From Candidatus Hodarchaeota archaeon (GTDB lineage: Archaea; Asgardarchaeota; Heimdallarchaeia; Hodarchaeales; Hodarchaeaceae), in the NCBI GenBank assembly GCA_016839785.1, contig JAEOTQ010000088.1, positions 1-52,707 of the forward strand: a DNA stretch of 52,707 bases. Direction: 5' to 3'. The notes below the pieces were generated by a model that had not been told where the DNA came from, did no database searches, and was given only the letters and a program-made list of their open reading frames with translations. Positions 11,322-43,321 of the stretch are shown here, piece by piece. A program made the position numbers and the translations under genes. Position 1 is the stretch's first letter; each line of letters starts with the position of its first letter.

Positions 11322-11333
11322 ATAAGTTCCAAT

Positions 11334-14638: not shown

Positions 14639-15019
14639 TTAATTCTGATGTAGATATTTTCCAATAATACGAAGTAATTCTGCAGAACTGAACGGTTTAG
14701 TCACATACTCTTCTGCCCCTGCTTGAAACCCCTCTTCGATATGATGGTCAAGGACCTTGGCAGAAAATATGATAATAGGAATAGATTTATGTACTGGATC
14801 TGTCTTCAATCGTCTACAAACCTCTATACCATTTAATTCTCCAGGCATTCTAATATCAAGGAGAATTAAATCGGGATTTTGCTTTACTTCCTCTAATGCC
14901 TCCGAACCATTTAGTGCTTTTAGTACGTCGTAACCTTCGTGTTTTAAGATCGTCTGCATTAATTCAAGGGTGTCAGGTTCGTCATCAACTACCAAAATAC
15001 TTTTCTTATCGGATATCAT
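14639..15019 (-). CDS. Stand-alone CheY-like response regulator receiver
   Basis: VVDDEP, phospho-acceptor LLDIRMP, SA, KPF. Start at MISDKK. No kinase in the window. Confidence 0.9.
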   Translation of the reverse strand: MISDKKSILVVDDEPDTLELMQTILKHEGYDVLKALNGSEALEEVKQNPDLILLDIRMPGELNGIEVCRRLKTDPVHKSIPIIIFSAKVLDHHIEEGFQAGAEEYVTKPFSSAELLRIIGKYLHQN

Positions 15020-15173
15020 AGGAAAAACCAGTGGAAAATGCAATAATAGCAAAATTTGTGACTTTTTACAGGCTAACTTGGTTAGTTTAATAATATTTTT
15101 TTAGCGACGTTAGGCTTGGAAACGGTTCTTATTCACCATAAAATTTAGATAATCTCAATATCTCATTTCAAAC

Positions 15174-15836: not shown

Positions 15837-15886
15837 TTGCTACTCAACACCTAGAATACGTTGAATTGATCTTATCCGTATAATTC

Positions 15887-16642: not shown

Positions 16643-16643
16643 A

Positions 16644-17576: not shown

Positions 17577-17664
17577 ATTACCCCACTTATTTCACAAGAT
17601 CCCTACTACATAAATTACTAATCGTATTTAACTAAATTTTCTGAAGTATATTATCCGACCAGTA

Positions 17665-25647: not shown

Positions 25648-26112
25648 ATGCCATCATCCAAAAAATCAACTCTCGTAAAAGAAGGTAAATTAGAAAAAAA
25701 AGCTCTTCACGTCACTAAAGAGGAATTTTTTTCATTAAAACCTATTCAAAGCACATTCATAACTATTTTAAAGGAGAAAGATGATCAATTATTGTTGGAA
25801 CTTAACATAACAAAATTTAAGAAAAAATCTTTAAGAAAAAGATTAATCCCATCACCAAATTATAAGAAAATCCAATTAGACAAACTAGGAAAATTTACAT
25901 TCGAATTATGTGATGGTAATAACACAGTTAAACAAATCATTAAAAAATTTCAAGAAACGTTTAAATTAACGTTAACTGAGACAGAAACTGCTGTAACAAA
26001 ATATCTGACAATTCTTAATGCCCGACACTTAATCGGGTGGCAAATTCCTCAAGAGATGATGGAAAAAACAAACTTGAAAGAAAAAAGTGTTGAGGAGATA
26101 TCTCTAGATTAA
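25648..26112 (+). CDS. PqqD-family (RRE-like) protein
   Basis: LDKLGKFTFELCDGNNTVKQII...AVTKYLTILNARHLI matches the PqqD/RRE pattern. Confidence 0.75.
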   Translation: MPSSKKSTLVKEGKLEKKALHVTKEEFFSLKPIQSTFITILKEKDDQLLLELNITKFKKKSLRKRLIPSPNYKKIQLDKLGKFTFELCDGNNTVKQIIKKFQETFKLTLTETETAVTKYLTILNARHLIGWQIPQEMMEKTNLKEKSVEEISLD

Positions 26113-26134
26113 CACGCAGCATTTCCTTTTTATA

Positions 26135-27091
26135 TCAGTTATTAGTGATTGCTAATTTAACTATATTCTCAATTATTTGTTCATTACGCTTTTGAGACTC
26201 GGTTTGACTTTTAAACTTGAATATTAAGCAATATATATCATTTTTTTCTTTATTTTGCCAAAAGAAACCTTGAATATCGGATTTTGGACGCAATGGGAGA
26301 TTTCTCCCTTGCGTATTCCTCCTGAAATGCCAAAAATTTCTTTCGGGTTTACTTGTTATTTTCTTGCTAAATTCATCTTCGCTTGGTTTAAAACCTGAAG
26401 GGATACCAGGGAGAGTTTTGGGATAATAATCTATGAACCACGCTGGTAATTCATCGATAGAAGAAATTTTCTGGTTTGCCAGACCCAATCTATAACAATA
26501 TATATCAAGAGACTTATAGCGAAGCTGAAAAAATGATAAACCAACTAAAAATGCCTGTTTAATTAATTTCATGGATCGTGGGGTAGTAATCGTTAGATTT
26601 GGTCCAACCCATTTACTCTCATAGTCTATCGGATGGCAATTTGCTGTTTCAAGAACCTGCATTATATCAGCTTTAATTTTCTTGGCTTCATCGTTTGAAA
26701 ACTGACTTTGCATGATGATTAGCCTTTTTAATATATCACAGTTCCAAACTACAATATAACCGTGTAGTGTCATATCTTCAGTAGCCCAATATAGCGTTTT
26801 TCCCTTATGATCAGAAATTTCAATAACCTTTTCCGTACGTTTCTTGATTTTCTTTTGTTTCTTCATAATAGTCTCGAAATAATCACTGATAACCACATCT
26901 AAATCAGGAATCTTTCCTTTCTCAACTTCCACCCATCGAAATTCCAGAATTTTTTTCTTTGTAGTGCGAAAACCAAAATAACCAGTTATTTCTTTACCTT
27001 TCTTCTTAGGTGTTTTTGTTGCAAACACAATTTCCCATTCATCAGGAACGTTTAAGACTATATCCTGCCAACCGATGGTTTTAAAGTCCAT
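26135..27091 (-). CDS. Hypothetical soluble protein, possibly two tandem PsbP/DcrB-like domains
   Basis: Long ORF without TM segments; LNVPDEW at the N-terminus and a similar ITTPRSM about 160 aa later. Confidence 0.55.
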   Translation of the reverse strand: MDFKTIGWQDIVLNVPDEWEIVFATKTPKKKGKEITGYFGFRTTKKKILEFRWVEVEKGKIPDLDVVISDYFETIMKKQKKIKKRTEKVIEISDHKGKTLYWATEDMTLHGYIVVWNCDILKRLIIMQSQFSNDEAKKIKADIMQVLETANCHPIDYESKWVGPNLTITTPRSMKLIKQAFLVGLSFFQLRYKSLDIYCYRLGLANQKISSIDELPAWFIDYYPKTLPGIPSGFKPSEDEFSKKITSKPERNFWHFRRNTQGRNLPLRPKSDIQGFFWQNKEKNDIYCLIFKFKSQTESQKRNEQIIENIVKLAITNN

Positions 27092-27162
27092 ATTAAGATC
27101 CAGTCCTAGAAAGACTTTGAGGATAGCTAACTATCGGATGTTGAAAATGAGGTTTATTAGGA

Positions 27163-28209
27163 TTGTTAAATAACGTTGCTCTATTTGTAGAGCCAAAAAA
27201 TATTAGCCTTCAAACGATTGATATCCCCGAGATTAAAGAAACAGATATTCTGGTAAAAACAGCATATTGTGGCCTCTGTGGAACGGATATTCACCTATTT
27301 GATGGAAACATACCATTTGTAAATTATCCAATAGTACCTGGTCATGAATTTTCAGGGGAGATAATTAAAATTGGTTCTAAGGTAAGAAACGATCTACAAA
27401 TTGGTGACAGAGTAGCAGTCGATCCGAATTTGTCCTGTAAAGACTTTCAGAAGAAGAAGTGTTACTATTGTATGAAGGATCGAAAACATTTCTGTCTTGC
27501 ATGGGAAGCAATAGGCGTTACTCTAAATGGTGCTTTCGCTGAATATGTTATTTGTCCGAGTACCGTGGCATTTAAAATTCCCGAAAATGTCTCTTTAAGG
27601 GCGGCTGCGTTCATGGAACCGCTTGCCTGCTGCTTACATGGATTAAACAAGTTAGAAATAACACAGTCAGATGTTGTCTTTATTATCGGAGGAGGACCAA
27701 TTGGTTTATTGATGCTCTCAATTCTAAAAGGAACGACTTCTTGTAAGACTATTGTAAGTGAGCCCATTAATTCACGAAGAAACCTAGCAAAAAAACTTGG
27801 AGCAGATGTAATAATTAACCCATTAAATGATGAAGTATTCCCAATTCTTAAATCCGAGACCTTTGATGCAGGAGTAGATATTGCTATAGAATGTGTAGGA
27901 TCAATAGTAACTGCCAAGCAAGCACTTGATAGTCTCAATAAAGGAGGAAAAGCTTTAGTCTTCGGAGTTGCTGATCCTTTGTCAACTATAAATTTGGATA
28001 TTCACAGACTATATTCAAACGAAATTTCAATTTTTGGGAGTTTTACCAACCCTAAAACAAATATGAAAGCTTTGGACTTGCTTTCTAAAGAAATACTAAC
28101 CCCTATTCCATTGATTTCTCACGAAATCCAAACTAATAAAATTGAGGAGACAATCTCTCTCGTAAAAAGTCATGCAGATAATATGAATAAGATTTTAATA
28201 AAACCATAA
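27163..28209 (+). CDS. Zn-dependent MDR alcohol/polyol dehydrogenase (sorbitol/iditol-DH-like)
   Basis: CGLCGTDIH, GHEFSG, four structural-Zn cysteines, EPLACCLHG, IGGGPIG. Confidence 0.9.
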   Translation: MLNNVALFVEPKNISLQTIDIPEIKETDILVKTAYCGLCGTDIHLFDGNIPFVNYPIVPGHEFSGEIIKIGSKVRNDLQIGDRVAVDPNLSCKDFQKKKCYYCMKDRKHFCLAWEAIGVTLNGAFAEYVICPSTVAFKIPENVSLRAAAFMEPLACCLHGLNKLEITQSDVVFIIGGGPIGLLMLSILKGTTSCKTIVSEPINSRRNLAKKLGADVIINPLNDEVFPILKSETFDAGVDIAIECVGSIVTAKQALDSLNKGGKALVFGVADPLSTINLDIHRLYSNEISIFGSFTNPKTNMKALDLLSKEILTPIPLISHEIQTNKIEETISLVKSHADNMNKILIKP

Positions 28210-28302
28210 AATGTTCATTTGAATTGAGATACTCCAAAAGTAAATTAACCCATCTATCTAGTTGAAATCAAACTTCTTGAATAATTCAAGGAAACATGAA
28301 AT

Positions 28303-28680
28303 ATGTCTGAAAACACCATTCAATGTCCCTGTGGCCAACCTATTCATGATTACACGGATTACTTACTCTTGTATTTGAAAAAAGACTCAGATGAAGGAGG
28401 CGAGATTGATATTCTTTGTAGAAACGATTATTGTTACTTAAGAGAGTTAGGCTACTTGAAATTTACCATTGATAAAGCTAGGAAGGTTACATTAGAAAAA
28501 GGTAAATTCTATGCGCCATATGTAACATGGAATGCAACAAGGATGTCAGAAGCTCGTACAGTAGAAATCCTTAAAATACATCTAGTAGACATTACAGAGA
28601 AGCTCGTGCAATGGGAGAAGGTCATAAGGGGAATTGATAAAGAAAAGAAAGCATTAAGTTCTGAGGAGGCAACTGCGTGA
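28303..28680 (+). CDS. Small Cys-rich (CPCG...CxxxxC) putative Zn-binding protein
   Basis: Four cysteines; its stop overlaps the next start (GTGA, 28677-28680). Confidence 0.65.
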   Translation: MSENTIQCPCGQPIHDYTDYLLLYLKKDSDEGGEIDILCRNDYCYLRELGYLKFTIDKARKVTLEKGKFYAPYVTWNATRMSEARTVEILKIHLVDITEKLVQWEKVIRGIDKEKKALSSEEATA

Positions 28681-29279
28681 GCTTAGATTTACCAGAACCT
28701 GATTTTTCACTCTCAGAGGTATTTTATTTATCTTATTCAAATATCAAAAGGAGATTTTTCCGTTCTATTATAACAGCGTTGGGAATTATTTTAGGAATCG
28801 CATTTATGGCTGCCTTATTGACAAATTCACTTATTTTAGATTGGCTACAGACAGAATCAGGTGTTGAAGCATATCAATACTGGTTAGTAGGGATTTCATT
28901 GATAGTTGCCTTCGGGGGAATTACCAACTCCATGTTGATGGCTGTTAACGAAAGAGTGAAGGAAATCGGGGTTTATAAGTGCATTGGAGGATTAGATTCC
29001 CACATTGTTCGTCTATTCATAGTAGAAGCCCTACTCTTAGGAATATTGGGTGGTTTCTTTGGAGCAATAATTGGTATCGGGATGGGAATTGGAATAAATT
29101 TAAACCGTGCTTCTTTAGACGAATTAACAGTCATTCTTGAAGCAAATTTCTCAACGCTACTCATACTTTTTTCAGCTTGCATTCTGATTGCAATAATACT
29201 AACATCACTCGCGACCTATATCCCAGCTCGAAGAGCTTCTAAACTTTCACCAGCTGAAGCTTTAAGATACGAAAATTAA
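28677..29279 (+). CDS. Minimal FtsX/MacB-type ABC permease lacking an extracytoplasmic domain
   Basis: NIKRRFFRSIITALGIILG, NSMLMAVNERVKEIGVYKCIG, LFIVEA, PARRASKLSPAEALRYE; 4 TM segments. Confidence 0.9.
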   Translation: MSLDLPEPDFSLSEVFYLSYSNIKRRFFRSIITALGIILGIAFMAALLTNSLILDWLQTESGVEAYQYWLVGISLIVAFGGITNSMLMAVNERVKEIGVYKCIGGLDSHIVRLFIVEALLLGILGGFFGAIIGIGMGIGINLNRASLDELTVILEANFSTLLILFSACILIAIILTSLATYIPARRASKLSPAEALRYEN

Positions 29280-29294
29280 TATGGTGGTTTTAAT

Positions 29295-30017
29295 ATGAGT
29301 TTAGAAGAATTTGTGGTTGAGATTGATGATGTTCACAAGGAATATACCTTAGGAAAGGTTATTATACATGCTCTTCAGGGAATTTCTTTTAAAATTAAGC
29401 GAGAGGAATATGTTTCTATAATGGGGCCCTCTGGATCAGGAAAAAGTACAATTTTCAATGCAATTGGCGGTTTGGATACAGTTACAAGCGGAGAAATTTA
29501 TATAGACCAAGTAGACATAGCTGAATTGGATGCTTATGAATTAGCATGGTTAAGGAACAGAAAAATTGGATATATTTTCCAAACATTTAACTTACTGCTT
29601 GCATTTTCTGCACAAGAAAATATTGAAATTCCAATGGTATTCGCTGGAGTTCCAAGAGAAGAGAGGAGAAAAAAATCAAAGCATATTCTGAATTTGGTAG
29701 GCTTAGGTGATCGAGCTAGGAATAAACCAGGTCAGCTATCAGGAGGACAACAACAGCGAGTGGCAATAGCACGTGCACTAGCAAATGATCCCGCAATTAT
29801 ACTTGCCGATGAACCAACTGCAAACCTCGATTTAGCAACTGGTTTAGAAATAATTGGATTACTCAAAAAGCTTAACGAAGAGCAAGGAACGACAATTGTC
29901 TCCGCTACACACGATCTAAAAATGATTAGCATAAGTGATAGGATTATCTGGATTCGAGATGGTAGAGTGGATAGAATTGAAGACCGAGCTGACATCCAAG
30001 TAGATGCAATGAGTTAA
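29295..30017 (+). CDS. ABC ATP-binding protein, LolD/MacB family
   Basis: GPSGSGKST, IGYIFQTFNL, LSGGQQQRVAIARAL, ADEPTANLD, THD. Confidence 0.95.
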   Translation: MSLEEFVVEIDDVHKEYTLGKVIIHALQGISFKIKREEYVSIMGPSGSGKSTIFNAIGGLDTVTSGEIYIDQVDIAELDAYELAWLRNRKIGYIFQTFNLLLAFSAQENIEIPMVFAGVPREERRKKSKHILNLVGLGDRARNKPGQLSGGQQQRVAIARALANDPAIILADEPTANLDLATGLEIIGLLKKLNEEQGTTIVSATHDLKMISISDRIIWIRDGRVDRIEDRADIQVDAMS

Positions 30018-30021
30018 TGGA

Positions 30022-30768
30022 GTGAAGAAATTGTCAGAAGATATAACCATACGGATGGAGAATGTTGTAAGAACGTATCAAATGGGTACTCAAAAAGTTA
30101 AAGCTTTAGATGGAATTTCTATATCCATCCCACGGGGCGAATTTCATGTCATTATGGGTCCATCTGGATCAGGGAAAACAACATTTCTTAATATGGTTGG
30201 TGCACTAGACGTACCTTCGGAGGGAGAAGTCTATTTTGAGGGTGTTCCTCTTTCTAAAATGACTCAAAAGCAATTAGCTTCCTTGCGATCTTATAAAATC
30301 GGATTTATCTTTCAAACATTTAATTTAGTTCCAGTGATTACGGCTTTGGAAAATGTTGCCCTACCTTTAATCTTCCAGAAATATCCCCGAAAAGAACGAA
30401 AAAAGAGAGCAGAAGAAATGTTGGAACGTGTTGGTTTAGGCGATCGCATGAACCATACTCCTGATGAATTATCGGGAGGACAACAACAACGTGTGGCTAT
30501 TGCCCGTGCACTCGCGGGAAAGCCTAGTCTTGTCTTAGCGGACGAACCAACAGGAAATTTGGACTTAAAAACAGGATTTTCAATCGTTGAATTATTAAGA
30601 GAAATTTCACACGAAACTGGAGTAACTGTAATAAATTCGACTCACGATTTAAAATTAATTGATATTGCTGATAGAATTTCGTGGTTACGAGACGGTACTA
30701 TAACAAGGACCCAAAAAAGGATTGATGTATCAATATCCTCCGAAGATGTGACTATTCCATCATATTAA
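30022..30768 (+). CDS. ABC ATP-binding protein, LolD/MacB family (second paralogue)
   Basis: GPSGSGKTT, IGFIFQTFNL, LSGGQQQRVAIARAL, ADEPTGNLD, THD. Confidence 0.95.
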   Translation: MKKLSEDITIRMENVVRTYQMGTQKVKALDGISISIPRGEFHVIMGPSGSGKTTFLNMVGALDVPSEGEVYFEGVPLSKMTQKQLASLRSYKIGFIFQTFNLVPVITALENVALPLIFQKYPRKERKKRAEEMLERVGLGDRMNHTPDELSGGQQQRVAIARALAGKPSLVLADEPTGNLDLKTGFSIVELLREISHETGVTVINSTHDLKLIDIADRISWLRDGTITRTQKRIDVSISSEDVTIPSY

Positions 30769-30860
30769 CACTCTATAAAGAACATTCTTCAGGAAAAAAC
30801 TTAAAAGTTGACAGAATATCTTAAAAAAATACGTTAGATGTAAAATTTGGTGAATAAATT

Positions 30861-31046
30861 TTGGCAGAAAATAGTGATATTATTGCTGGTGTGTGTGTAG
30901 TATTAGCTCTACTACTTGCTATTTATAGTACTCCTGTAATGAATGAAATAGGCGAATTATTATTGTTTCTAATTGAAATAGGATTACTCATAGTAATAGT
31001 AGCGACTGCAATTTATGGACAGCGTATGTCAAAAAGTCGAGGATGA
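30861..31046 (+). CDS. Small 2-TM membrane protein
   Basis: Two hydrophobic helices, basic tail, GGTGA RBS upstream of TTG. Confidence 0.6.
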   Translation: MAENSDIIAGVCVVLALLLAIYSTPVMNEIGELLLFLIEIGLLIVIVATAIYGQRMSKSRG

Positions 31047-31072
31047 TTTTTTCAAACCATCCATTAAATGTC

Positions 31073-33499
31073 TTAATCAATTGGAGTAAGGACGACATTT
31101 AGGATCTCCCCTTCATTCAAATCGAAATTTACTCCGGTATTGAGTGTTTTTCGTGAGAGTGTAAGAGACCTTGTACCTTGTTTTTCAGTGAGTGAGTGCA
31201 TTCTCATCTCATAGTTCATATGTTCTTTTGTGTGAAAAGAGATTCGACATTTTGTATTTTCAAATAACGGATTGTAAATTACGAAATTTAGCTTTTTGGG
31301 AGGAAAAATGTCCATCAATGAAAAATCGAATAGATCTAGATTTAAAACCATTATATTAGGATTTGTACTATCTGCTAATGCCTCAAACATCAAATACAAA
31401 TAAATTATTTCCCCAGCACCGTAGATTTCCCTTCCTAAAGTACCTGTCCATGTTCCTTTTGGGGAATGTTCCTGGGAAGATGAAAAATGATGCGGTGTTT
31501 CTAGCATTTCAAGATCTTCAAATGGAATGTATGGGCAAGGGGTGTCTCTTCTCGGAGGATAAATAAATTCTTTGGGTAAAACACTTGAAAAAAAGTAGAA
31601 GGTGTTTATTCTGACTAGATTCAAGAATTTCATCACCCCTCTTGGGAGAAATCGATTGTTTTCTTCTTTCATCGCTGTTTTAAGAAACATTAGCCAAGGG
31701 AGAATTGATTCAATATTTTCTTTTACAGCGGGGTATCGAATCCCAATACATGCCATTGGTAATCCTAAATTTGACCTTTTCCCCTTCCAATCAAACGAGT
31801 TGTCATCATACCAATAAAACATTCTTAATTCATTCAACAAGAACTTTCTCGCTAATTCTAAATAGGTACTTTCCTTGGTAATTTTTGCAAGTTCAGAAAA
31901 TCCTGAAACTGCGTAAGCTATTTCGAATGGTTCCCAAAATAATGAATCTGGAGAAAATTTGGCCAATTTTTTTGCGCTTCTGATTGCTTCCTCAAGATAC
32001 TGACTTTCTTGAAATAGATAATAAGCTTGTATAACGATGTACAGGTGGATACCTAAGCAGGCATAATTTTTTGCTTTTCTTTTCCAAATAATGTCCTCTT
32101 CACCCCGTGATTCCTTCAGGATTGCTTCCCTATATTTATTAGAGTCTAAGATTTCTTTTAACGGTTTCAGTGAAAAGGGGTCGTAAAATGCTGTAATTTC
32201 ATAATTATGTTTCTTAACGAACTCTGTTGATCTTTTTACCATATATCTAAACGTTTCGATATATTGTGGATCTGTGGATATCAGAGGGGCTAGTCTGATA
32301 GTCCAACCAAATCTCAAAATTGGTTCAAAAAAATACCATGAATCTCCAATTGAATTTTCTGTGGCTTTAATTATGTTATGGCCTTTATCAGGGTCATATA
32401 CTACATTATTATAGAGAAATTTTGAAACTGGGTCAATAAAGTGATTTAAAGTCTGATACATCTGACTTACATGATTTTTTTGTTCTGGATATCGTTTTAG
32501 AGACAAATACAACATCCAAGGTGAGAGAAGGTCGAGCAATGTCATTGTTTCGAATACATTGGATCTTCCAATTGCTTTTCTTCGTTGAAGCTCGGATTCA
32601 TCCATTACGTAAGCAAAGTATTTAGGAAATTTTGGATCAACCCAGCAATACTTCTCCTTCAAAAGATCATTGATGCATCCTTCTGCAAATTTGGTCCAAT
32701 TTAACCCAGCTCTGGGAAAGGGAACGCTTCCTGGTACTAATTGAAAACACTTTGTTACTAGATTCTCCATTAAGTCCCATTGAGTTGGTCGTTCTTCATT
32801 GTATTCTTGAGTAATATAGTAGTCAAATATTATTGTTGTTCCCTTAACAAATGTAATTACTGATTTAAGAGGAATACGATGTACTAAACCCATTTTTCCA
32901 CTTGAATGAACTCCACATTCATAGATTGAAAATCGTTCTATGTTTCTTGGAGACATCCAATCCATTGTTGTGAAGTCCATGAAGAAAAAAATTTGTACCT
33001 TCGATTCGGGATTCCAAACTGCTGTGGCTGGCATATCATTTGATTTCCATTCGTCAGTAGAAGGAGTATGACGACTTGGTTGTCGAATGGTAACAAAATC
33101 ATCAAAAAAATGACTTTTCGGTAATAGGTCAATTTTTATTTCAGGACCAGTTTCAGAAAAGGTATAGTCCTCTTTAAATTTTATCTTCGTTTTGAAATGA
33201 ATCCAGGGATGGAATTTGGGTTGAGAGTTAACTTCTGTCGATATGTCAAGCCCTATTTCTTCTCTATTTCTAAGTTGAAGTCCAATACGACCTTTTCTTG
33301 GATCTCGCTGAATATCAGTTGCAGAGATAGTAACACCTTTTTCTAAGGTAATAAGTGGTATTTTTGCACTTTCCAACCATTTATCATTTATTCTAGATTG
33401 TAAAAGCACTGTATAGTGTTCTTCTACTTTTTTTAATAGGATTGATTGATCTTCCGTTACCACTAACTCATCTTGCATTGATTTCATGGGAATTACCAA
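31073..33499 (-). CDS. Uncharacterised cytosolic alpha/alpha-barrel glycosidase-like protein (paralogue of 47754..49613)
   Basis: Shares DSWY, EP.EIA, KENIESIL, EIYGAGE and YLMFEAL with 47754..49613; no signal peptide. Confidence 0.65.
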   Translation of the reverse strand: MVIPMKSMQDELVVTEDQSILLKKVEEHYTVLLQSRINDKWLESAKIPLITLEKGVTISATDIQRDPRKGRIGLQLRNREEIGLDISTEVNSQPKFHPWIHFKTKIKFKEDYTFSETGPEIKIDLLPKSHFFDDFVTIRQPSRHTPSTDEWKSNDMPATAVWNPESKVQIFFFMDFTTMDWMSPRNIERFSIYECGVHSSGKMGLVHRIPLKSVITFVKGTTIIFDYYITQEYNEERPTQWDLMENLVTKCFQLVPGSVPFPRAGLNWTKFAEGCINDLLKEKYCWVDPKFPKYFAYVMDESELQRRKAIGRSNVFETMTLLDLLSPWMLYLSLKRYPEQKNHVSQMYQTLNHFIDPVSKFLYNNVVYDPDKGHNIIKATENSIGDSWYFFEPILRFGWTIRLAPLISTDPQYIETFRYMVKRSTEFVKKHNYEITAFYDPFSLKPLKEILDSNKYREAILKESRGEEDIIWKRKAKNYACLGIHLYIVIQAYYLFQESQYLEEAIRSAKKLAKFSPDSLFWEPFEIAYAVSGFSELAKITKESTYLELARKFLLNELRMFYWYDDNSFDWKGKRSNLGLPMACIGIRYPAVKENIESILPWLMFLKTAMKEENNRFLPRGVMKFLNLVRINTFYFFSSVLPKEFIYPPRRDTPCPYIPFEDLEMLETPHHFSSSQEHSPKGTWTGTLGREIYGAGEIIYLYLMFEALADSTNPNIMVLNLDLFDFSLMDIFPPKKLNFVIYNPLFENTKCRISFHTKEHMNYEMRMHSLTEKQGTRSLTLSRKTLNTGVNFDLNEGEILNVVLTPID

Positions 33500-33560
33500 C
33501 GTAAACTTATACTTTAAATTTTCGATTTATTTATGTAAGTCCTTCCCAGATTATTAGAAG

Positions 33561-33578
33561 AAGTACTATTTAGTACTT
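33561..33578. promoter_or_regulatory. Perfect 8-2-8 inverted repeat AAGTACTA-TT-TAGTACTT, candidate operator
   Basis: Seen directly in the divergent intergenic region 33500-33795; function is inferred. Confidence 0.5.
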
Positions 33579-33620
33579 TGAACGGATATAGTATAATTGG
33601 AACTGAACTCAGTTTAGTAA

Positions 33621-33647
33621 AAATTAGGTAAATTAGGTAAATTAGTT
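33621..33647. repeat. Three tandem 9-bp direct repeats (AAATTAGGT x2, AAATTAGTT)
   Basis: Seen directly. Confidence 0.8.
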
Positions 33648-33710
33648 AAAAAATACCCCACGTTATTTCTGTGACTTGAGTCCTTCTTTGATCGTATCTA
33701 TTATCTTGGT

Positions 33711-33723
33711 AAAAGTTTAATAA
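33711..33723 (+). promoter_or_regulatory. Candidate BRE/TATA box for the 33796-42462 operon
   Basis: AAAAGTTTAATAA about 75 bp upstream of the ATG; AT-rich background lowers specificity. Confidence 0.35.
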
Positions 33724-33795
33724 CACATTAGTATCGTTCCTACGAGCTAATTAATTTTTACTATTCTACCTTTCCATCAGGTTTGCGTGATTTAA

Positions 33796-35982: not shown

Positions 35983-36003
35983 TAATGGATCCCGATTTGA
36001 AGG

Positions 36004-39000
36004 ATGGCCCAGTTATGTAATCAAAATAGGAGAATAATGATCTTGAGATTCACCAGAACCTTATTCTTCTTTTTTTTCCTATTCTCCTTTGTGGTAAGTA
36101 TTCAAATTTTTTTTGAGGAAGTTCTCATTCAGGAAGATGGAGAAGAAAGAATAGTTAATCTAACAGAACCAGAAGCATTTAACTCGATATCAAAGACAAT
36201 CGATTTTCCAGGATTTCAAGGACTAAGTGAGCAGATAAATCAAACCTATTTTGCTAATATCCAAAGTCATATCACAAATTTTTCCACGTTTGATCAAAGT
36301 AGGTTTACCGGATATCCTGGTTATGAGTCTGCAGCCGCTTATATCCGAGATTTTTTTATGAGTCAAGGGTTAGAGAATGCATCTTTCCTTACTTACCCTC
36401 TTTTAGTTCCACTTGATAAAGGAACTATGATTGAAGTGAATGGAGAAAATTATACAGCCCACACCCTCATGCCTAATTCACTCAATCCTGGAAAAACTGC
36501 TTCAGATGGTGTAACTGGCAATCTGATTTATGGAGGTAAAGGTACTTATTCCGAATTAGATGGTAAAAAGATAGAAGATGCAATTGTTGTGCTAGAATTT
36601 AATTCTTTGGACAATTGGATTAATGTAGCTAGTTTAGGAGCTAGTGGAGTTATTTTTCTACCCACTGACGAAACAAATCGCTTTGAGGCTGAAGAAAAGG
36701 TGTTGGATATCCCTCTTCACTTCCCAAGGCTCTATATTGAAAATCAAACAACTGCTACAGCAATTAAAAATTTATCAATGCAAGGAGATCAACAAATCAC
36801 AATTTTTTCTGATATGGAATGGACATCAATAGCTGCAAAGAATGTCATGGGATTATTACCAGGGATAAGTGAGGATATCATAATTATTTCTGCTTATTTC
36901 GACTCAGCATCAATCGTTCCAGCTATAGCTCCAGGTGCTGATGAAGCCTGTAGTATTGCATCAATGTTAGAGTTTATTCGAATTATCAAGGATAATAGTA
37001 TTGTACCTGAGAAAACCATCATGTTTTTAGCTCTTTCAGGACATAATCAGCAAGCTGCTGGAGCAAGAAATTTCGTGGATCAGTATTATAGCTCCTTAAA
37101 TGTAAATAAAGGGATCAAACTATTTCTTTCTTTCGATCTTTCGTCCACTAATAATAAGATCGCTATCAATCCCTATGGTTATTTGTACAAATTCCAACTT
37201 CAATATACAACTGGAAATCGACTTATTACAAAATTAAAAGATATTGCTCAAGATTTCTTCCTTAGTTACACAGATGCAATTATGAGTGAATCGGACTATT
37301 CTTTTAATGTAAAATCATATGTCACAAATCAACAATTTAAAGATATTGCTCCTATAACATTTGTCGGTGATCATGAACCTTTTATTGCATCAAATGTATT
37401 AGGATTATCTTTATTTACATCCGAATCCCATCGTTTGAATTTTAACACTCCCACTGATTTGTACACACACATTTCGACGCGAGAATTTGATTTTCTAAAA
37501 AATCAAGTTGTCTATAGCCTTTGTGCTCTCGCGCAACTTATAGTTGATGTAGATCTTAACCCAGTTTTATCAAATCTGGAAAACAAACAGTTCCAATTAA
37601 AAGTCGCCACAAATGCGCATGTTGGTTACGGATACATTGAAGGATTTGTAAAACAATATGATGAGACAAATGCATGGTTAATTGATGTTCCAAACGCGCT
37701 CGTTAGAGTTAGGGCTTATAGCAATCGTGATAGCAGTTTTGGAGAATATTCTTTCATTACACGAGCAGATGAAACTGGATATTACCAAATCCAAGGAGTC
37801 TCCTCCTCACAACCAGATTATCCTTTAGTATTTATTGTAGATGCATATTTGTTTGATTCTGAAGGGAACCTAATAAAAGCCATTGATCTTGGAACGAGAG
37901 GACAGTATTTCAAAAATTCTAACTCTTTAACAAAACGAAGAACCACTGTAAATCCTACTGTATTTGATTGTGGTACACTTAGTATTTTTGGTATTTATCA
38001 TCCCTTTACACAAGTTAGTGCTGCTCAAAATCTTGATTATACCGTAATAGATCCCCAAACTCGAAATCTATTTTTCTCTTATGGATATACTGGATTAAAA
38101 ACAGTGAGTTTAGTGTTCGTACAGCCAGATGTTCCTTCAATTGCAGTAGGAAAATATAACGATGGTATACTTGGTGTCTACGCAACAAATTCTGATAATC
38201 AAACTTTACGTGGAAAAGGCTTCACTCTAGGGCATGGAGAGTTTGAAAATCTTGGTTACTCCTCATTTATCACTGCTAGAGATCTCCTCTCAGCTACTCA
38301 GACATATATATCCTTGTATAGCCTTTATAATATCTATGATGCATTAGTCGAGAGCACTTATCACACAGCCTCAGAGTTATTAAATACTGCAACTGCTTTG
38401 AAAAACGACTATCAATATTCACAGTCAATTGCAACAATAATAGAATCACATACTTGGGCGTATGACTCTTTTAGACAAGCAAGAAAAGTTATACAAGATG
38501 GAACTACCACATCCATATTCTTTGCGATTCTCCTAATTCCATTTGCTTTTGCTTTATCCGCATTATTATTTGATTTTGACAGCGGGATTAAGCGAATCTT
38601 AGCTACAAGTACAATATATGCGGCCGTATTTGGATTCTTTTATTTGATCCATCCTGGGATGCACCTTTCAAGAAATATTGCAATGATAATTATAGGAGTA
38701 GTTGCAACAATATTCGTATTTCCCGCCTTATTCATGATATATCAAGAGGGATATGACTTTCTCAAGAGTTTACGTCTCAAACAGCTTGGTTCACATTTTG
38801 CTGACACTTCAAGAACTTCAACTTTGTTAATTGCTATGAGTACTGGAATCTCAAGAATGAAGAAACGAAAAGGTCGAACAGTCATTGCACTATCAGGGAT
38901 TGTACTCATTACGTTTTCCTTAACTCTTTTCACATCCGCAACAACTCAGATTACTACGTATTCTAAAGGAGAGAACCAAGATATCGCTTATGAAGGCCTT

Positions 39001-40542
39001 TACATCAGAACAAAGGATTGGGAATTTTCGCTTCCTGAAGAAATAATTGAGAATTTAAGAGTCACATACGGAGATCAGATACAAATCGCATCTAGGTGGT
39101 GGCTCTATCCACCATCAGATACTTCGGAATTCCCTAACGGTTACGTAAAAGTAGAAACTCCAGATGGGAATGAAAAATGGGAAGGGGACGCTATATTAGG
39201 TATGACGGCTGAGGAACAAAATTTTCATTCTCTCGAGACAATATTAGTAGCTGGCCGATGGTTTACCAGCTCTAATAGTTCGGAGTGTGTACTGGTTGAT
39301 GTCATCAGCAATAAATTAGGTGTAGCAGTTAATGAAACTGTTATTTGGGCTGGCCAAGAATTTATAGTTGTAGGTATAATTAGTTCTCAAGGACTTGACA
39401 GAATTAAAGATTACGACACAGAAAAAATTACACCAAAAAATAATCATGCACCAGCTCCAAATGTTCATATACAAGCAGATGAAACTTTTATATTACCAGC
39501 CTACACAGTAAAGTCTTTTGGAGGAACTATCTCCTCTATTTCAATTACAGCAAAGAATAAAACGTTACAAGAGCTCTCTTTATATGAAGAGATTGCAGGA
39601 AAAATTTCCTCAACCTACGGAAGAAACTTACTAGTTAGAGTCGGAATTAATGATGAAGTAACGATTTACAAAAGACAACTCCAAAGCCTCGGAGAGGGGT
39701 TAGGAGACCTTGGAATTCCACTGTTAATAGCAGTATTATTGATGATAAATACTTCAGTTAGTACTGTGTACGAATCAAGAAAGGAAATAAATACATTTAC
39801 TTCATTAGGATTGGCACCAGTTCATATTGCTGGATTATTCTTAGCAGAATTTCTTGTTTATGCTGTTATTGGATCTGTAATTGGGTACCTTATGGGTATT
39901 ACTTCAGCTGTAATATTGTCGGCGTTGGGTATATTTCCCGAGTCACTAGCAATTAATTATTCGTCAGGATCAATAGTCTCTGCATTAGGTTTGGGTATCG
40001 GGGGAATTCTCCTTAGTACAATATACCCGCTAAGAATATCAGCGAAGATGTCGGTTCCTTCCGTTCGACGAACATGGGAGCTAAAAACAACTTATGAAGA
40101 GGATGGTAAGACTTGGACTATTCCTCTACCCTTCGTTGCTGCAACCGAACAGGAAGCAGAGGGGATTATTGAGTTTTTAAGAGAATATTTTGTAATTTAT
40201 GAGTCAGAAAGTGTAGGAGGGGCATTTTTCGCGCAAAATATCTCGACAAGTGAAGCTGATAGAGAAAGAAGAGAGAAGCATCTAACTGCCATTGTCAACT
40301 TAGCACCTTTTGATGCAGGATTGAAACAGGAAGTGGATATCTACACTTACCTTGAGGAGATTAAATTTCACTACATATTCGAAATTAATTTAGTTCGCCT
40401 TGAAGGAATTTTATTAGCTTGGGAATCTTCAGTCCGACGATTCGTTGACAGTATTAGAAAGCAATTGTTAATTTGGAGAAGTCTTCCTAAAGAGGAAAAA
40501 GCGCTTAAATCAGAGAAATTCAGAACAAATTTAAAAAAATGA
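36004..40542 (+). CDS. Large membrane protein: PA/M28-peptidase-like ectodomain + TM bundle + MacB/FtsX permease + C-terminal domain
   Basis: SRFTGYPGYESAA, PA-like GNLIYGGKG, SAYFDS...PGADE, GDHEPF; three central TMs; RKGRTVIALSGI, GRWF, VYESRKEI..FTSLG, FLAE, YPLRISAKMSVPS. Confidence 0.85.
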   Translation: MAQLCNQNRRIMILRFTRTLFFFFFLFSFVVSIQIFFEEVLIQEDGEERIVNLTEPEAFNSISKTIDFPGFQGLSEQINQTYFANIQSHITNFSTFDQSRFTGYPGYESAAAYIRDFFMSQGLENASFLTYPLLVPLDKGTMIEVNGENYTAHTLMPNSLNPGKTASDGVTGNLIYGGKGTYSELDGKKIEDAIVVLEFNSLDNWINVASLGASGVIFLPTDETNRFEAEEKVLDIPLHFPRLYIENQTTATAIKNLSMQGDQQITIFSDMEWTSIAAKNVMGLLPGISEDIIIISAYFDSASIVPAIAPGADEACSIASMLEFIRIIKDNSIVPEKTIMFLALSGHNQQAAGARNFVDQYYSSLNVNKGIKLFLSFDLSSTNNKIAINPYGYLYKFQLQYTTGNRLITKLKDIAQDFFLSYTDAIMSESDYSFNVKSYVTNQQFKDIAPITFVGDHEPFIASNVLGLSLFTSESHRLNFNTPTDLYTHISTREFDFLKNQVVYSLCALAQLIVDVDLNPVLSNLENKQFQLKVATNAHVGYGYIEGFVKQYDETNAWLIDVPNALVRVRAYSNRDSSFGEYSFITRADETGYYQIQGVSSSQPDYPLVFIVDAYLFDSEGNLIKAIDLGTRGQYFKNSNSLTKRRTTVNPTVFDCGTLSIFGIYHPFTQVSAAQNLDYTVIDPQTRNLFFSYGYTGLKTVSLVFVQPDVPSIAVGKYNDGILGVYATNSDNQTLRGKGFTLGHGEFENLGYSSFITARDLLSATQTYISLYSLYNIYDALVESTYHTASELLNTATALKNDYQYSQSIATIIESHTWAYDSFRQARKVIQDGTTTSIFFAILLIPFAFALSALLFDFDSGIKRILATSTIYAAVFGFFYLIHPGMHLSRNIAMIIIGVVATIFVFPALFMIYQEGYDFLKSLRLKQLGSHFADTSRTSTLLIAMSTGISRMKKRKGRTVIALSGIVLITFSLTLFTSATTQITTYSKGENQDIAYEGLYIRTKDWEFSLPEEIIENLRVTYGDQIQIASRWWLYPPSDTSEFPNGYVKVETPDGNEKWEGDAILGMTAEEQNFHSLETILVAGRWFTSSNSSECVLVDVISNKLGVAVNETVIWAGQEFIVVGIISSQGLDRIKDYDTEKITPKNNHAPAPNVHIQADETFILPAYTVKSFGGTISSISITAKNKTLQELSLYEEIAGKISSTYGRNLLVRVGINDEVTIYKRQLQSLGEGLGDLGIPLLIAVLLMINTSVSTVYESRKEINTFTSLGLAPVHIAGLFLAEFLVYAVIGSVIGYLMGITSAVILSALGIFPESLAINYSSGSIVSALGLGIGGILLSTIYPLRISAKMSVPSVRRTWELKTTYEEDGKTWTIPLPFVAATEQEAEGIIEFLREYFVIYESESVGGAFFAQNISTSEADRERREKHLTAIVNLAPFDAGLKQEVDIYTYLEEIKFHYIFEINLVRLEGILLAWESSVRRFVDSIRKQLLIWRSLPKEEKALKSEKFRTNLKK

Positions 40543-40560
40543 TACAGAGGCCAACAAATC

Positions 40561-42462
40561 ATGAGTGAAAGTCTAGAAAACAATGATAATGTGATTGGAA
40601 CAGAAGAGCACAAAGAGGAATTTCAAAGTGGATTCACATGGCGAGTTGGCCTTGCAATAGTATATTCAGCAGTTATTATTCAACCCGCAGCCATTTATCT
40701 TTATTTTGTTACTAATCAATGGTTTATTGGAGCTGTTTTGAACACAACCATTGTTTTATTTGCAGTATTCGCTAAATTAGCAGACAATCCCCTTACTAAA
40801 CAAGAAGTCTTCATGCTGATCAATGTCACGAGTACAGCTCTTGGCATGGAAATGATTGTTGCCTTGGTTTTTAATTATTATTTAAGACATCACCCCATCA
40901 TAAGTTCACAACTTGTAAACGGGGTACCCCTCTCTGCATTGATTCCTGATTGGTTTGCCCCAGCATATTTTGGTCCTATAGAGACTTTACTAAATCCAGT
41001 GTTTATCCTTCCATTAGGGTTACTCATAATTAATGCACTTCTGGCAAAATCAACGGACATTTCTTTGGGTATTGTATTCAACTATTTATACACTAAAGTC
41101 GAGGTATTACCATTCCCAACAGCTGAAGTTGAAGCTGAAAGAGCTAGGGCATTGACATGGGATGATAAGAATAAATTACAGGTTTTTTCAGTTAGTGCGA
41201 TAATAGCAAGTTTTGCAGGATTGATTCTCTACTTTTTTCCCCTAGTTTTTGATATAACATTGATTCCCATCCCTTGGTTTGATTTCACTCCATCTGTTGA
41301 AGGATTTTTTAATGGTGCAACATTTGGAATTGCTACTGATATAATTTTCTTTGTAACTGGATTTATACTTCCTATGAGCGTTGTTGCTAGTATTTTAATC
41401 GGATCTCTCTTCGTAAACTTTCTTGTCAATCCATTACTCGTTGCAAATAATATTGATATAGGCTGGGAAAAAGGAATGTCCCTTGTAGACACCTTCAATA
41501 ATTCTCAGCTAAACTTCTGGTTACCCTGGACAATTGGTCTACTTCTAAGCTCTGCATTAATCCCCATTTTACGAAATCCAAAAATCTTTATTACAACTAT
41601 AAGAGACTTGAGAAAGCTATCCCAAGGAAAAGGAGAAGAAATGGACGGTGGTACTCCCAAATTAAGCCTATTGTTTGGATTTTTTGTATTGGGAACTTTA
41701 GGTTCTGTTGCAGTCGCTTGGTTAATCATTCCTGACCTTTCACAGCAAATGATTGTCATACTTATCATATTAACATTAGGTTGGAGTTTTTTGTCTTCTC
41801 TAACAATGGCATACGCTTTTGGAATAACAGCTAATCTTCCAGTTATACCTTACGTTAAAGAATCAGCTTTTGTTGCAGCTAATGCACCTGTCGGTGGTAA
41901 AATATGGTTCATGCCATTAGTGATTTCACAAGGAGGAGCAGGATGGGTAGCTACATTCAAAACAGCAGACTTAACGTATACGAAGAGAGGGAGCTTAATA
42001 AAAGCACACTTCTTAGCTTCGTTTGTAGCTTGGATAGCAGGTGTCTTTTGGGTTTCAGCCCTTCTCTCGATTGCCCAAGTACCCTCTGTAATTTTCCCAG
42101 TTCCATTTTGGCCTCTAGAGGTCGGGAAAATTGCTACTTTTGTAACAAATCCAACAGCAATAATTGATCCTATTATCATCGGAATTGCCTTTATTGCCAC
42201 TTTATTCCTATATATTCTAGAATGGGGTACTCCGATTCCAATATCAGTAATTTCTTTCTCCGTGGGAACAATAACGGTTATTCCTTATGCGCTTACTACA
42301 TTTTTAGGTGCACTTTTTGCTCAATTATTGAAGTCACGAATGGATAACTGGAATACAAATCGAGCAGTTATACTAGCTGGTACAGGTGCAGGAGTCGGGA
42401 TTGTAATCGCTCTGGCTACATTCTTGTCTTTAATTAAAAACACAATTGCTTTACCATTATAG
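40561..42462 (+). CDS. OPT-family-like oligopeptide/oligosaccharide transporter membrane protein
   Basis: About 15-16 TM segments; SGFTWR, LTKQE, IPDWFAP, VEVLPFPTAEV. Confidence 0.7.
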   Translation: MSESLENNDNVIGTEEHKEEFQSGFTWRVGLAIVYSAVIIQPAAIYLYFVTNQWFIGAVLNTTIVLFAVFAKLADNPLTKQEVFMLINVTSTALGMEMIVALVFNYYLRHHPIISSQLVNGVPLSALIPDWFAPAYFGPIETLLNPVFILPLGLLIINALLAKSTDISLGIVFNYLYTKVEVLPFPTAEVEAERARALTWDDKNKLQVFSVSAIIASFAGLILYFFPLVFDITLIPIPWFDFTPSVEGFFNGATFGIATDIIFFVTGFILPMSVVASILIGSLFVNFLVNPLLVANNIDIGWEKGMSLVDTFNNSQLNFWLPWTIGLLLSSALIPILRNPKIFITTIRDLRKLSQGKGEEMDGGTPKLSLLFGFFVLGTLGSVAVAWLIIPDLSQQMIVILIILTLGWSFLSSLTMAYAFGITANLPVIPYVKESAFVAANAPVGGKIWFMPLVISQGGAGWVATFKTADLTYTKRGSLIKAHFLASFVAWIAGVFWVSALLSIAQVPSVIFPVPFWPLEVGKIATFVTNPTAIIDPIIIGIAFIATLFLYILEWGTPIPISVISFSVGTITVIPYALTTFLGALFAQLLKSRMDNWNTNRAVILAGTGAGVGIVIALATFLSLIKNTIALPL

Positions 42463-42469
42463 AGTAATA

Positions 42470-43150
42470 TTATAACCTGGTTTGAGTTTCTTGGGTAATT
42501 CTTTGTACTCTAATTGCGATTTCCTCTAAAAGTTCAATAATGAGATCAATTGTCTGAAAATATCTCTTTTTGGACAATATCATATCTACAAATTTTTCAA
42601 TACTTATATTCCATATAAGTTCCGTGGGAGATTCGTAGGTTTTTCTGTACTCACGACAGTATTCATCCAGATCCTTAGTTATGATAGGTTGGGAGAAAAG
42701 TCGGATTGATACTTGATCTGGAACAATTTTGTGAATGTGCTCCAAAACGGAAGTATCTTGATTTAGGGATTCAACTAACGAAGTGTTTATGTATAAACCA
42801 GGGATTTCCCTCTGTAGATGTTCTAGAAAGGATGAGGATCGAAAAACGTATTTTTTCTTCAGATATCCTTTTCGCTCTATCTCACACTCATATCCCTTTA
42901 GCCTTTGAAAAAGGAGAGAGTCATCAAAGGAGAAGTTTTCCTTATTAATTACTATAACCGAGGCTGTAAATTCCCAAGATTTATCAGAAGAGTACGAGAG
43001 TCGTTTGGATCTGACAAGTATTGAATTAAAATGATAGTTTATTTTGGGAACTAACACACTTGCACCTAGATCGGATATTTGCCAGTCTCCGTACTTGGAC
43101 ATGTATTTAGCAAAGGGAGCCAATAAACCATCAGTGTAGGATTCAACCAT
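42470..43150 (-). CDS. Hypothetical soluble protein
   Basis: 226-aa ORF filling the gap between flanking genes; no recognised motif. Confidence 0.55.
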   Translation of the reverse strand: MVESYTDGLLAPFAKYMSKYGDWQISDLGASVLVPKINYHFNSILVRSKRLSYSSDKSWEFTASVIVINKENFSFDDSLLFQRLKGYECEIERKGYLKKKYVFRSSSFLEHLQREIPGLYINTSLVESLNQDTSVLEHIHKIVPDQVSIRLFSQPIITKDLDEYCREYRKTYESPTELIWNISIEKFVDMILSKKRYFQTIDLIIELLEEIAIRVQRITQETQTRL

Positions 43151-43321
43151 AAGTACTCATCAGGAATAATTATAATTTAACTGACTTATAATAGACTTTA
43201 AAATTCATTCGTTCCCCTTTAGACTAATTACTTTAAACGAGAAATAATCTTTTAAACCGCTGTTATTTTTTAATTTGATCAATAAAACAAAATACATCGT
43301 TGTTTCCCCTTGGTGGTTAGT

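Follow-up and report, generated by a model that had tools for sequence, protein, structure and literature searches.

Contig JAEOTQ010000088.1 of an uncultured Hodarchaeales archaeon (Candidatus Hodarchaeota archaeon, GenBank assembly GCA_016839785.1) raises the question of why parts of a type VII ATP-binding cassette (ABC) system and relatives of the OPT carriers are encoded side by side. Type VII ABC systems consist of a dimeric assembly of transmembrane (TM) domains, act by mechanotransmission and have no pore. The stretch analysed here, hereafter the window, comprises positions 1 to 52,707 of the forward strand. A previous reading of the letters alone (the sequence-only reading) had pointed within it to an ATP-driven import machine for glycans or glycopeptides, composed of two ATPases, a small FtsX protein, a fusion of an M28-like domain with FtsX, two OPT-like proteins, a PqqD-like protein, a Cys-rich protein and a 318-aa partner. 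All of these genes proved to be real open reading frames (ORFs) at the positions assigned to them, and the block, taken here as 25648-43150, consists of two operons and cytosolic accessory genes. One operon, the triad, encodes OPT/YSL-fold protein A, a giant FtsX fusion and a second OPT/YSL-fold protein, p633, with intergenic gaps of 21 and 18 nt as had been noted. The other, the engine operon, encodes a 4-Cys protein, mini-FtsX and two MacB/LolD-type ATPases.

As described below, triad and engine co-occur across distant phyla, and the genes very probably form one functional module. All parts belong to known fold families; undescribed are the way in which they are combined, the reduction of the FtsX partner, the ectodomain with its dead peptidase domain and the engine that triads apparently share. 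Indeed, the earlier view of the machine as undescribed still stands: neither a characterised system nor a paper matching the architecture was found. In the literature searched, no paper mentioned DUF6785, DUF6784, PF20581 or PF20580, and none was found that described an FtsX/OPT/MacB system of this kind or a Hodarchaeales mannosidase.

OPT-fold proteins, FtsX fusion and ABC engine

Profile and structure comparisons bear out the name OPT-like for the two membrane proteins on either side of the fusion. A DUF6785 profile built from 61 relatives, with 616 representative clusters at E values up to 0.001, matched barley YS1 (7wsr), an iron-phytosiderophore transporter, with an E value of 1.1e-9. When an AlphaFold2 model of protein A (pLDDT 82.8, pTM 0.89) was searched with Foldseek, YS1 (7wst/7wsr) was the sole significant match (E 1e-10, TM-score 0.60/0.72); the next match had an E value above 0.01 and a TM-score of about 0.13. 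The identity of the window protein to YS1 was only about 16%, and the Pfam model OPT (PF03169) matched neither protein A nor p633 at E values up to 10. For p633, no Pfam match of any kind was observed up to the same E value, and a 17-member p633 profile found no sequence match in the PDB. BLASTP of protein A against p633 gave no significant pairwise match (E 0.10). The relationship left open by BLASTP was settled by profile comparison: hhalign aligned the 17-member p633 profile with the DUF6785 profile end to end over 594 columns (probability 100, E 8.4e-40). Furthermore, some p633 homologues carry a precomputed PF03169 match or the NCBI name 'OPT/YSL family transporter'. Protein A and p633 are distantly related paralogues, and both have the OPT/YSL fold.

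In a phylogenetic tree, p633 formed one clade, and for 22 of its 24 members a fusion of more than 1000 aa was found no more than 6 kb away. The remaining two were a locus in which the fusion is cut by the contig end and a remote variant, L071. Hence p633 is a dedicated paralogue specific to triads. YS1 is described in PMC9691689 as a homodimeric, proton-coupled carrier of the elevator type; by analogy with this homodimer, the two adjacent paralogues of the triad suggest a heterodimer.

The layout of the fusion was determined by a hydropathy scan and a 15-member alignment. An N-terminal anchor (residues 19-37) is followed by an ectodomain of about 800 aa, in which the M28-like domain occupies residues 280-499, then by three extra TM helices (838-912), a cytosolic linker and FtsX TM1 (959-977). 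The C-terminal part consists of a MacB core ectodomain, TM2-4 (1237-1340) and a conserved cytosolic tail of 170 aa, which extends to residue 1512 and has an invariant WR end; the total is thus eight TM helices. The MacB_PCD match (PF12704) lies between TM1 and TM2, as in MacB itself; its score of 26.3 bits is slightly below the cut-off of 27, and relatives of the fusion reached 41.9 and 37.0 bits. Both M28 and FtsX were found by Pfam in all four distant fusion members tested. By their PF02687 matches, mini-FtsX and the fusion both carry the FtsX-type 4-TM permease domain of the type VII ABC class.

The domain had been called pseudo-M28, and this wording was confirmed. It matched the M28 family model (PF04389) with an E value of 8.5e-14 and was compared with Aeromonas aminopeptidase (1amp, 2anp), in which we take the zinc ligands and general base to be His97, Asp117, Glu151/152, Asp179 and His256. 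The window protein has Tyr at the position of His97 and His-Asn at that of Glu151-Glu152; the first Glu is also precisely the position at which the entries 1amp and 2anp differ. Across the 15-member alignment, position 151 is His in 13 members, position 152 is acidic in none and position 97 is His in 9, positions 179 and 256 giving no reliable alignment. The catalytic Glu-Glu pair is thus replaced in 15 of 15 members; judged from these residues, the domain is a catalytically dead scaffold in the whole family. Below the Pfam thresholds, Nicastrin was matched in family members (E 0.02 and 0.05) and PA in the window protein (E 0.084). Complex prediction for p633 with fusion residues 825-985 gave a score of 0.06 (mark 0.32), which counts neither for nor against binding.

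In the engine operon, the end of the Cys-rich gene overlaps the start of mini-FtsX by 4 nt. The residues C8, C10, C39 and C44 of the Cys-rich protein were invariant in the alignment. According to a TM scan, mini-FtsX has a loop of about 20 residues in place of the MacB periplasmic domain. The two ATPases are 48.5% identical to each other, and their best NCBIfam matches were MacB, LolD, DarD, DevA and FtsE, all below the equivalog cut-offs (ATPase 1: LolD 7.9e-66 and the MacB nucleotide-binding domain 5.9e-66; ATPase 2: LolD 2.5e-71). Walker A, the signature LSGGQQQR, Walker B-Glu and the H-loop are all present in the translation of ATPase 1, and the motifs of ATPase 2 were likewise read as intact. 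Locus L058 holds a natural fusion of the Rosetta stone kind, in which the Cys-rich protein forms the C-terminus of an ATPase 2-like protein: residues 6-240 correspond to ATPase 2 at 56% identity and residues 253-351 to the Cys-rich protein at 45%.

Conservation within the genus and across phyla

The source genome of the window is 4.04 Mb in 248 contigs and 84.5% complete. NCBI assigns close homologues of the window proteins to Hodarchaeales, Heimdallarchaeota or Promethearchaeota. Among 41 related genomes, PF20581 was found in 12 (11 of 21 others of the same genus, 0 of 19 in other genera of the class). Six of six orthologous loci showed the fixed order p318, Cys-rich, mini-FtsX, ATPase 1, ATPase 2, p808, DUF6785, fusion, p633. 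Two divergent paralogous clusters (L018 and L020, 23-68% identity) both hold mini-FtsX, the Cys-rich protein, p318, a 1650-aa fusion, p226, DUF6785 and p633; L018 retains an ATPase, and L020 is cut by the contig start. Every Hodarchaeales cluster has its own engine. The Cys-rich gene adjoined mini-FtsX in every case found. This pair was present in 12 of 12 relatives with DUF6785 and in 2 of the 29 without it, in both cases on contigs of 2.5-3.3 kb; in one further relative without DUF6785, mini-FtsX was truncated by a contig edge. The same genus also contains the remote third variant, L071, where positions 8181-18122 encode the Cys-rich protein, mini-FtsX, ATPase 1 and ATPase 2 together with a 739-aa p633-like protein and a 579-aa FtsX protein; a PqqD-like gene lies 6 kb off.

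Distant loci were collected by a pattern search from a 4-sequence alignment with one genome per species. The resulting 32 DUF6785 loci come from Bathyarchaeia, other Thermoproteota, Brockarchaeota, Nitrososphaerota and Latescibacterota. The fusion (about 1500 aa) and a p633 homologue adjoin DUF6785 in 12 of them (Bathyarchaeia, other Thermoproteota and Latescibacterota), and one further locus has a 1031-aa FtsX variant; L074 and L075 are additional cases of the triad. At least five gene orders were observed, namely DUF6785-fusion-p633, fusion-p633-DUF6785, fusion-DUF6785-p633, fusion-p226-DUF6785-p633 and divergent arrangements.

Five distant triad-bearing genomes each contained exactly one strong mini-FtsX orthologue (E 1e-49 to 1e-54 in four, 9e-29 in the bacterium), which adjoined an ATPase 1-like gene in four of the five. 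In these genomes, FtsX-matching frames of at least 1355 aa numbered 2, 2, 2, 7 and 4, and full-length p633 genes 2, 2, 5, 8 and 3. Judged by position, a large FtsX fusion lies immediately next to 17 of these 20 p633 genes; for the other 3 no assignment could be made. The Cys-rich protein was found in three of the five, distant from the triads, and stood beside ATPases in two of these. In Bathyarchaeia the engine is single-copy and unlinked to the triads, which number 2 to 8 per genome in Bathyarchaeia and other Thermoproteota; from these gene counts, the triads of Bathyarchaeia appear to share a single engine. In one 2.1-Mb Thermoproteota genome, 7-8 triads take up about 3% of the DNA. The Latescibacterota genome G045 (6 Mb) holds 28 DUF6785 genes, which match the Pfam model with E values down to 3.5e-127.

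Full-length fusions were found in only five of 81 Bathyarchaeia genomes (G041, G059, G089, G095 and G101), all of which are among the six with p633 matches. Mini-FtsX was present in 4 of 4 genomes with a strong p633 match, against 15 of 81 overall. Eleven Bathyarchaeia genomes (G063, G075, G081, G087, G088, G093, G099, G106, G110, G120 and G125) carry mini-FtsX together with an FtsX protein of about 930-1030 aa, located on the same contig 1-2.5 kb away. This protein matches only the C-terminal half of the fusion and has no M28 ectodomain. The basal system looks like mini-FtsX, an ATPase and a large FtsX partner, of which the triad fusions look like a derived subfamily.

The neighbourhood comparison proposed by the sequence-only reading came out largely as foreseen: the triad recurs across phyla in permuted order, the engine accompanies it at the level of the genome and the carbohydrate-active enzymes (CAZymes) nearby vary. 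The reading holds less well for PqqD, the second ATPase and the mannosidases: the second ATPase is not always present, and none of the three is a universal part.

Gene block, accessory proteins and carbohydrate context

Features of the block and of the mannosidase genes upstream of it (GH, glycoside hydrolase)
Feature	Position	Strand	Basis
GH38 alpha-mannosidase, cytosolic	18893-21772	+	Pfam
GH130 mannoside phosphorylase	22079-22975	-	Pfam
GH2 beta-mannosidase-like protein	23104-25551	-	Pfam
PqqD/RRE-like protein, 154 aa, cytosolic	25648-26112	+	PF05402 E 2.7e-6, 28 bits (cut-off 23.4)
p318, 318-aa cytosolic protein, no known family	26135-27091	-	no Pfam/NCBIfam/PDB match
Zn-dependent alcohol/polyol dehydrogenase (ADH)	27163-28209	+	ADH_N E 6e-30, ADH_zinc_N E 9e-22
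Cys-rich (4-Cys, CPC...C..C) cytosolic protein, 125 aa	28303-28680	+	four invariant Cys
Mini-FtsX, 200 aa, 4 TM, no ectodomain	28677-29279	+	PF02687 E 7.5e-17
ATPase 1, ABC, MacB/LolD type	29295-30017	+	ABC_tran E 7e-35
ATPase 2, ABC, MacB/LolD type	30022-30768	+	ABC_tran E 7e-34
p808, 808-aa cytosolic CAZyme-like protein	31073-33499	-	predicted fold
OPT/YSL-fold membrane protein A (DUF6785+DUF6784), 728 aa	33796-35982	+	PF20581 E 1.6e-34, PF20580 E 2.5e-9
Giant FtsX fusion, 1512 aa	36004-40542	+	M28 E 8.5e-14, FtsX E 4e-11, MacB_PCD E 1e-5
OPT/YSL-fold membrane protein B (p633), 633 aa, multi-TM	40561-42462	+	profile alignment to DUF6785
p226, 226-aa cytosolic protein, no known family	42470-43150	-	synteny; just past the earlier-noted block end

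None of the accessory proteins PqqD, p318 and p226 has a TM segment. The PqqD-like protein, which scored far under the cut-offs of the NCBIfam PqqD models, is encoded in most orthologous loci (5 of 6) but is rare among the distant ones (2 of 32); its gene stands beside triads in L023 and L071 and is fused in L052. p318 is a core accessory within the genus, being present in 6 of 6 orthologous loci and both paralogous clusters. In the Atlas, the clusters closest to it contain hypothetical proteins from Thermoproteota, Bathyarchaeota and Armatimonadota, and it is unrelated to the genes adjoining mini-FtsX in Bathyarchaeia (hhalign probability 0.05). p226 had no family or PDB match and was matched over its full length in 5 of 6 orthologous loci; in both paralogous clusters it lies between the fusion and DUF6785 on the same strand, and it was detected in L023, L025 and L026 as well. 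Profiles of p318 and p226 found nothing meaningful in the PDB (best E 0.011). The ADH gene is a facultative insertion, present in half of the orthologous loci (3 of 6).

p808 is encoded divergently from the triad operon and occurs in 6 of 6 orthologous loci. Its AlphaFold2 model (pLDDT 86, pTM 0.90) consists of a beta-sandwich, an (alpha/alpha)6 barrel and another beta-sandwich. Foldseek matched the model to polysaccharide lyase 5no8 (E 1e-8) and to GH94, GH81, GH63, GH127 and GH76; these top matches to carbohydrate-active toroids have E values of 1e-8 to 1e-5, with a global TM-score of only 0.2-0.3. GH127 was also indicated in the Atlas, at 0.93. Neither a Pfam match nor a family-level sequence match to a named CAZy family was obtained for p808. 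Identity is 44% or higher for all 30 homologues found, and the named ones all belong to Hodarchaeales, Heimdallarchaeota or Promethearchaeota; p808 is specific to this lineage. A LanC-like assignment, based on a weak match to LanCL1 (E 0.003, 67 residues), was dropped after the fold search favoured CAZyme toroids.

The block had been described as embedded among mannosidases. GH38, GH130 and GH2 are indeed present, all lacking a hydrophobic N-terminus and TM segments; the description holds for the upstream side only, and the neighbours downstream are family-less, surface-anchored proteins. Three large proteins encoded there, at 43310-45559 (+), 47754-49613 (-) and 49690-51672 (-), belong to no Pfam or NCBIfam family and have an N-terminal hydrophobic segment; two of them also have a C-terminal anchor, and the appearance of all three is that of cell-surface proteins. 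Near GH38, GH130 and GH2, the window showed no further transporter. A 710-aa protein at 11334-13466 (+), with hydrophobic segments at its N- and C-termini, gave a weak match to GH47, the alpha-mannosidase of the endoplasmic reticulum type (E 6e-5, 22.6 bits, cut-off 22.9). Such an enzyme in an Asgard archaeon would deserve attention. This GH47-like protein and the three anchored proteins may act outside the cell.

Positions 107-14575 hold a glycan-biosynthesis cluster with two GT2 genes, a Polysacc_synt gene of the flippase type, a Glyphos_transf-like gene, a hexapeptide acyltransferase, a GFO/IDH oxidoreductase, an LPG_synthase_TM protein, a methyltransferase and mannose-1-phosphate guanylyltransferase (ManC). 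At 15174-17576 (-), a Dus-like TIM-barrel gene lies between CofC- and CofD-like genes of F420 biosynthesis; the presence of CofC and CofD agrees with an archaeal origin. Neither tRNA genes nor compositional breaks were found in the window.

The carbohydrate genes near triads differ from locus to locus: GH30 and an alpha-L-fucosidase in L030, a melibiase-like protein in L027, GH94 in L074, GHL10 between two DUF6785 genes in L075, a glucuronyl C5-epimerase-like protein in L034 and an ADP-ribosylglycohydrolase in L026. Among 70 triad-neighbour proteins, the top 25 Pfam families listed included an oligogalacturonate lyase, a gluconolactonase-like protein, a PfkB kinase, radical SAM (4) and URO-D (3), and two RNase E/G-like proteins were also among the neighbours. 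Around 14 stand-alone DUF6785 genes of G045, the top 25 families of 123 neighbours included heparinase II/III-like (4), xylose-isomerase-like (4), epimerase (4), enolase-superfamily (3) and PhyH (5) proteins. This variety fits an oligosaccharide cargo with a specificity particular to each locus. Proteins with a CxxxCxxC motif are encoded beside triads in three archaeal loci that are not related to one another, at 10955-12136 of L026, 12518-13534 of L029, and 7683-8744 and 10363-11319 of L051; the Radical_SAM count of 4 comes from the same protein set, and none was found in the window.

Two metatranscriptome libraries contained contigs that match, with no less than 95% identity, parts of p318, the Cys-rich gene, ATPase 1, DUF6785, the fusion and p633. 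One contig of 229 nt runs across the junction of DUF6785 and the fusion, covering 158 nt on one side of it and 50 nt on the other. This support is weak, because DNA may be present in RNA libraries and a contig is no proof that the genes share one transcript. Many bins, including PqqD and p808, were uncovered and most runs had small shares of the sequence; no conclusion was drawn.

Proposed machine, rival explanations and significance

We tentatively propose, with rather less than even confidence, that the module is an uptake machine for an oligosaccharide or glycopeptide in which a type VII ABC engine acts on an OPT-fold heterodimer. The giant and mini FtsX proteins would form the heterodimeric membrane part of a MacB/LolCDE-like ABC, powered by the pair of ATPase 1 and ATPase 2, with the 4-Cys protein presumably bound to one ATPase. 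The OPT-fold heterodimer would be the actual pore, and ATP-driven movement of the ectodomain would capture an extracellular oligomer and hand it to the OPT pair or gate this pair. In Bathyarchaeia, one engine might serve several triads, as does the shared energising module of group II energy-coupling factor (ECF) transporters. The cargo at this locus would most likely be mannose-containing oligosaccharides or fragments of N-glycans or glycopeptides, the breakdown of which the cytosolic GH38, GH130 and GH2 enzymes and the toroid enzyme p808 would finish. The parts of this proposal differ in strength: the arguments for and against a physical coupling of the ABC and OPT proteins balance, uptake is slightly favoured over export, and a glycan-derived cargo at this locus is an even call.

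Several observations weigh against this proposal. DUF6785 stands without a fusion in 19 of the 32 distant loci, several of which are short stretches, and in about 24 of the 28 copies in G045; in the tree, stand-alone and triad-linked DUF6785 genes are mixed. The engine is not specific to triads, as the 11 Bathyarchaeia genomes described above have mini-FtsX without p633. To our knowledge, characterised type VII ABC systems all export, extract or activate outside the cell, and none imports. As for the carbohydrate context, the mannosidase flank is not kept in other loci of the genus, save for a GH130-like gene in L016. No CAZyme was found at the triad loci L021, L023, L029, L035 and L051, where radical SAM, URO-D and RNase E/G-like proteins recur, and the association with CAZymes is a qualitative one without a background control. 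Finally, OPT/YSL carriers work alone on the proton gradient (PMC9691689).

The last point leads to an alternative in which the genes serve the same pathway as separate machines: the OPT proteins would be ordinary proton-coupled carriers, and the ABC formed by giant and mini FtsX an extracellular mechanotransducer, comparable to FtsEX with its hydrolase partners. It might hold on to a surface-bound polymer, unfold it, present it or sense it, but would neither drive nor gate the carriers. The frequent stand-alone DUF6785 genes agree with this, as do known type VII ABCs, which work outside the membrane. Moreover, mini-FtsX with a large FtsX protein occurs without OPT-like genes in 11 of 81 Bathyarchaeia genomes, which indicates that the ABC has a function of its own, and YS1 runs on the proton gradient alone (PMC9691689). 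However, p633 is found almost only beside fusions by both tree and coordinates, the adjacency has outlasted at least five rearrangements across phyla and the gaps of 18-21 nt suggest co-translation. Such linkage is tighter than would be expected from a merely shared pathway, and we regard separate machines as unlikely. The cargo might also be a peptide, with oligopeptides, the classic substrates of OPT carriers, taken up and the dead M28/PA-like ectodomain serving as the peptide receptor. OPT stands for oligopeptide transporter, the M28 scaffold is understood from the family to bind peptide N-termini, the PqqD/RRE domain binds peptides (with the PqqD match here above the Pfam cut-off) and several triad loci lack a CAZyme neighbour. 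Nevertheless, this alternative is improbable: the genes scanned next to triads included neither peptidases nor enzymes of amino-acid catabolism, and varied carbohydrate-active neighbours recur, even around the stand-alone DUF6785 genes of Latescibacterota. A glycopeptide cargo would fit both the glycan and the peptide reading.

Opposite in direction is a role in export, extraction or envelope maintenance, in which the substance expelled or extracted would be a glycan linked to a lipid, a component of the surface layer or a toxic compound, and the OPT pair would act as a flippase or exporter. MacB, LolCDE, DevCA, BceAB and HrtBA act outward, MacB, LolD, DarD and DevA are the best matches of the ATPases, and the first 14.6 kb of the window is the glycan-biosynthesis cluster with GT2, flippase-type Polysacc_synt and ManC genes. 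That cluster is 11 kb off, however, and is not conserved beside the block in relatives, whereas the immediate neighbours (GH130, GH38, GH2 and p808) are catabolic and cytosolic, and no other importer was seen in the window. Characterised OPT/YSL members are, in addition, importers according to PMC9691689, and we judge an outward function quite improbable. The PqqD-like gene, the discarded LanCL1 match of p808 and the radical SAM genes beside triads in L026, L029 and L051 recall systems for ribosomally synthesised and post-translationally modified peptides (RiPPs), in which PqqD would serve recognition, p808 would be a LanC-like cyclase and the ABC would confer export or immunity. This is hardly credible here, as the scanned window ORFs include neither a radical SAM gene nor any other known RiPP enzyme (precursor peptide genes were not searched for), PqqD is missing at most distant triad loci and the best folds for p808 are carbohydrate-active toroids, not LanC.

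Returning to the proposed uptake machine, we compared it with known systems. It shares with MacB, LolCDE and FtsEX the FtsX 4-TM domain, the MacB core ectodomain between TM1 and TM2 and the MacB/LolD-type ATPases, and with LolC/LolE the use of two unlike membrane subunits. Unlike these systems, one subunit here is reduced to bare TM helices, and the other adds an N-terminal anchor, an ectodomain of about 800 aa with a dead M28 domain, three TM helices and a 170-aa tail. Two different ATPases with a 4-Cys partner, the obligate linkage to two OPT-fold proteins and a mostly archaeal distribution, in hosts without an outer membrane, are further differences. The transferrin receptor and nicastrin likewise carry on a membrane anchor an M28 scaffold that lacks the metal and catalytic residues; they have no significant sequence match to the fusion, in which the domain is joined to an ABC membrane subunit. 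The resemblance to group II ECF transporters lies in the possible working only, with one engine per genome and several triads: the membrane parts are not homologous, the sharing of the engine is deduced from gene counts and the Hodarchaeales clusters have their own engines. The OPT-fold proteins have the fold of YS1 (7wsr, 7wst), and their two paralogous genes recall its dimeric assembly (PMC9691689). In contrast to YS1, which works on its own as a proton symporter for metal chelates, they are encoded in an operon with an ABC subunit. A broader interpretation, which we consider doubtful, is a hybrid class of transporters in which a small type VII engine (bare 4-TM FtsX, MacB-type ATPases and a Zn-ribbon-like partner) would dock interchangeably on substrate-specific triad modules.

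Through this analysis, DUF6785, DUF6784 and at least five family-less proteins have been given a fold and a context. If the hybrid class of transporters is real, it would comprise the first uptake system of the OPT fold driven by ATP and the first type VII ABC that imports, and it would be widespread among archaea of sediments, the Asgard Hodarchaeales among them. An obligate pairing would overturn two assumed rules, that type VII systems never import and that OPT proteins never need ATP, and would thus represent a transport architecture of a new kind. Abundant in the genomes that have it, the system occurs in uncultured archaea of sediments, in which substrate uptake is poorly understood, and for the Hodarchaeales archaeon it offers a testable route by which the organism may feed on mannose-rich glycans.

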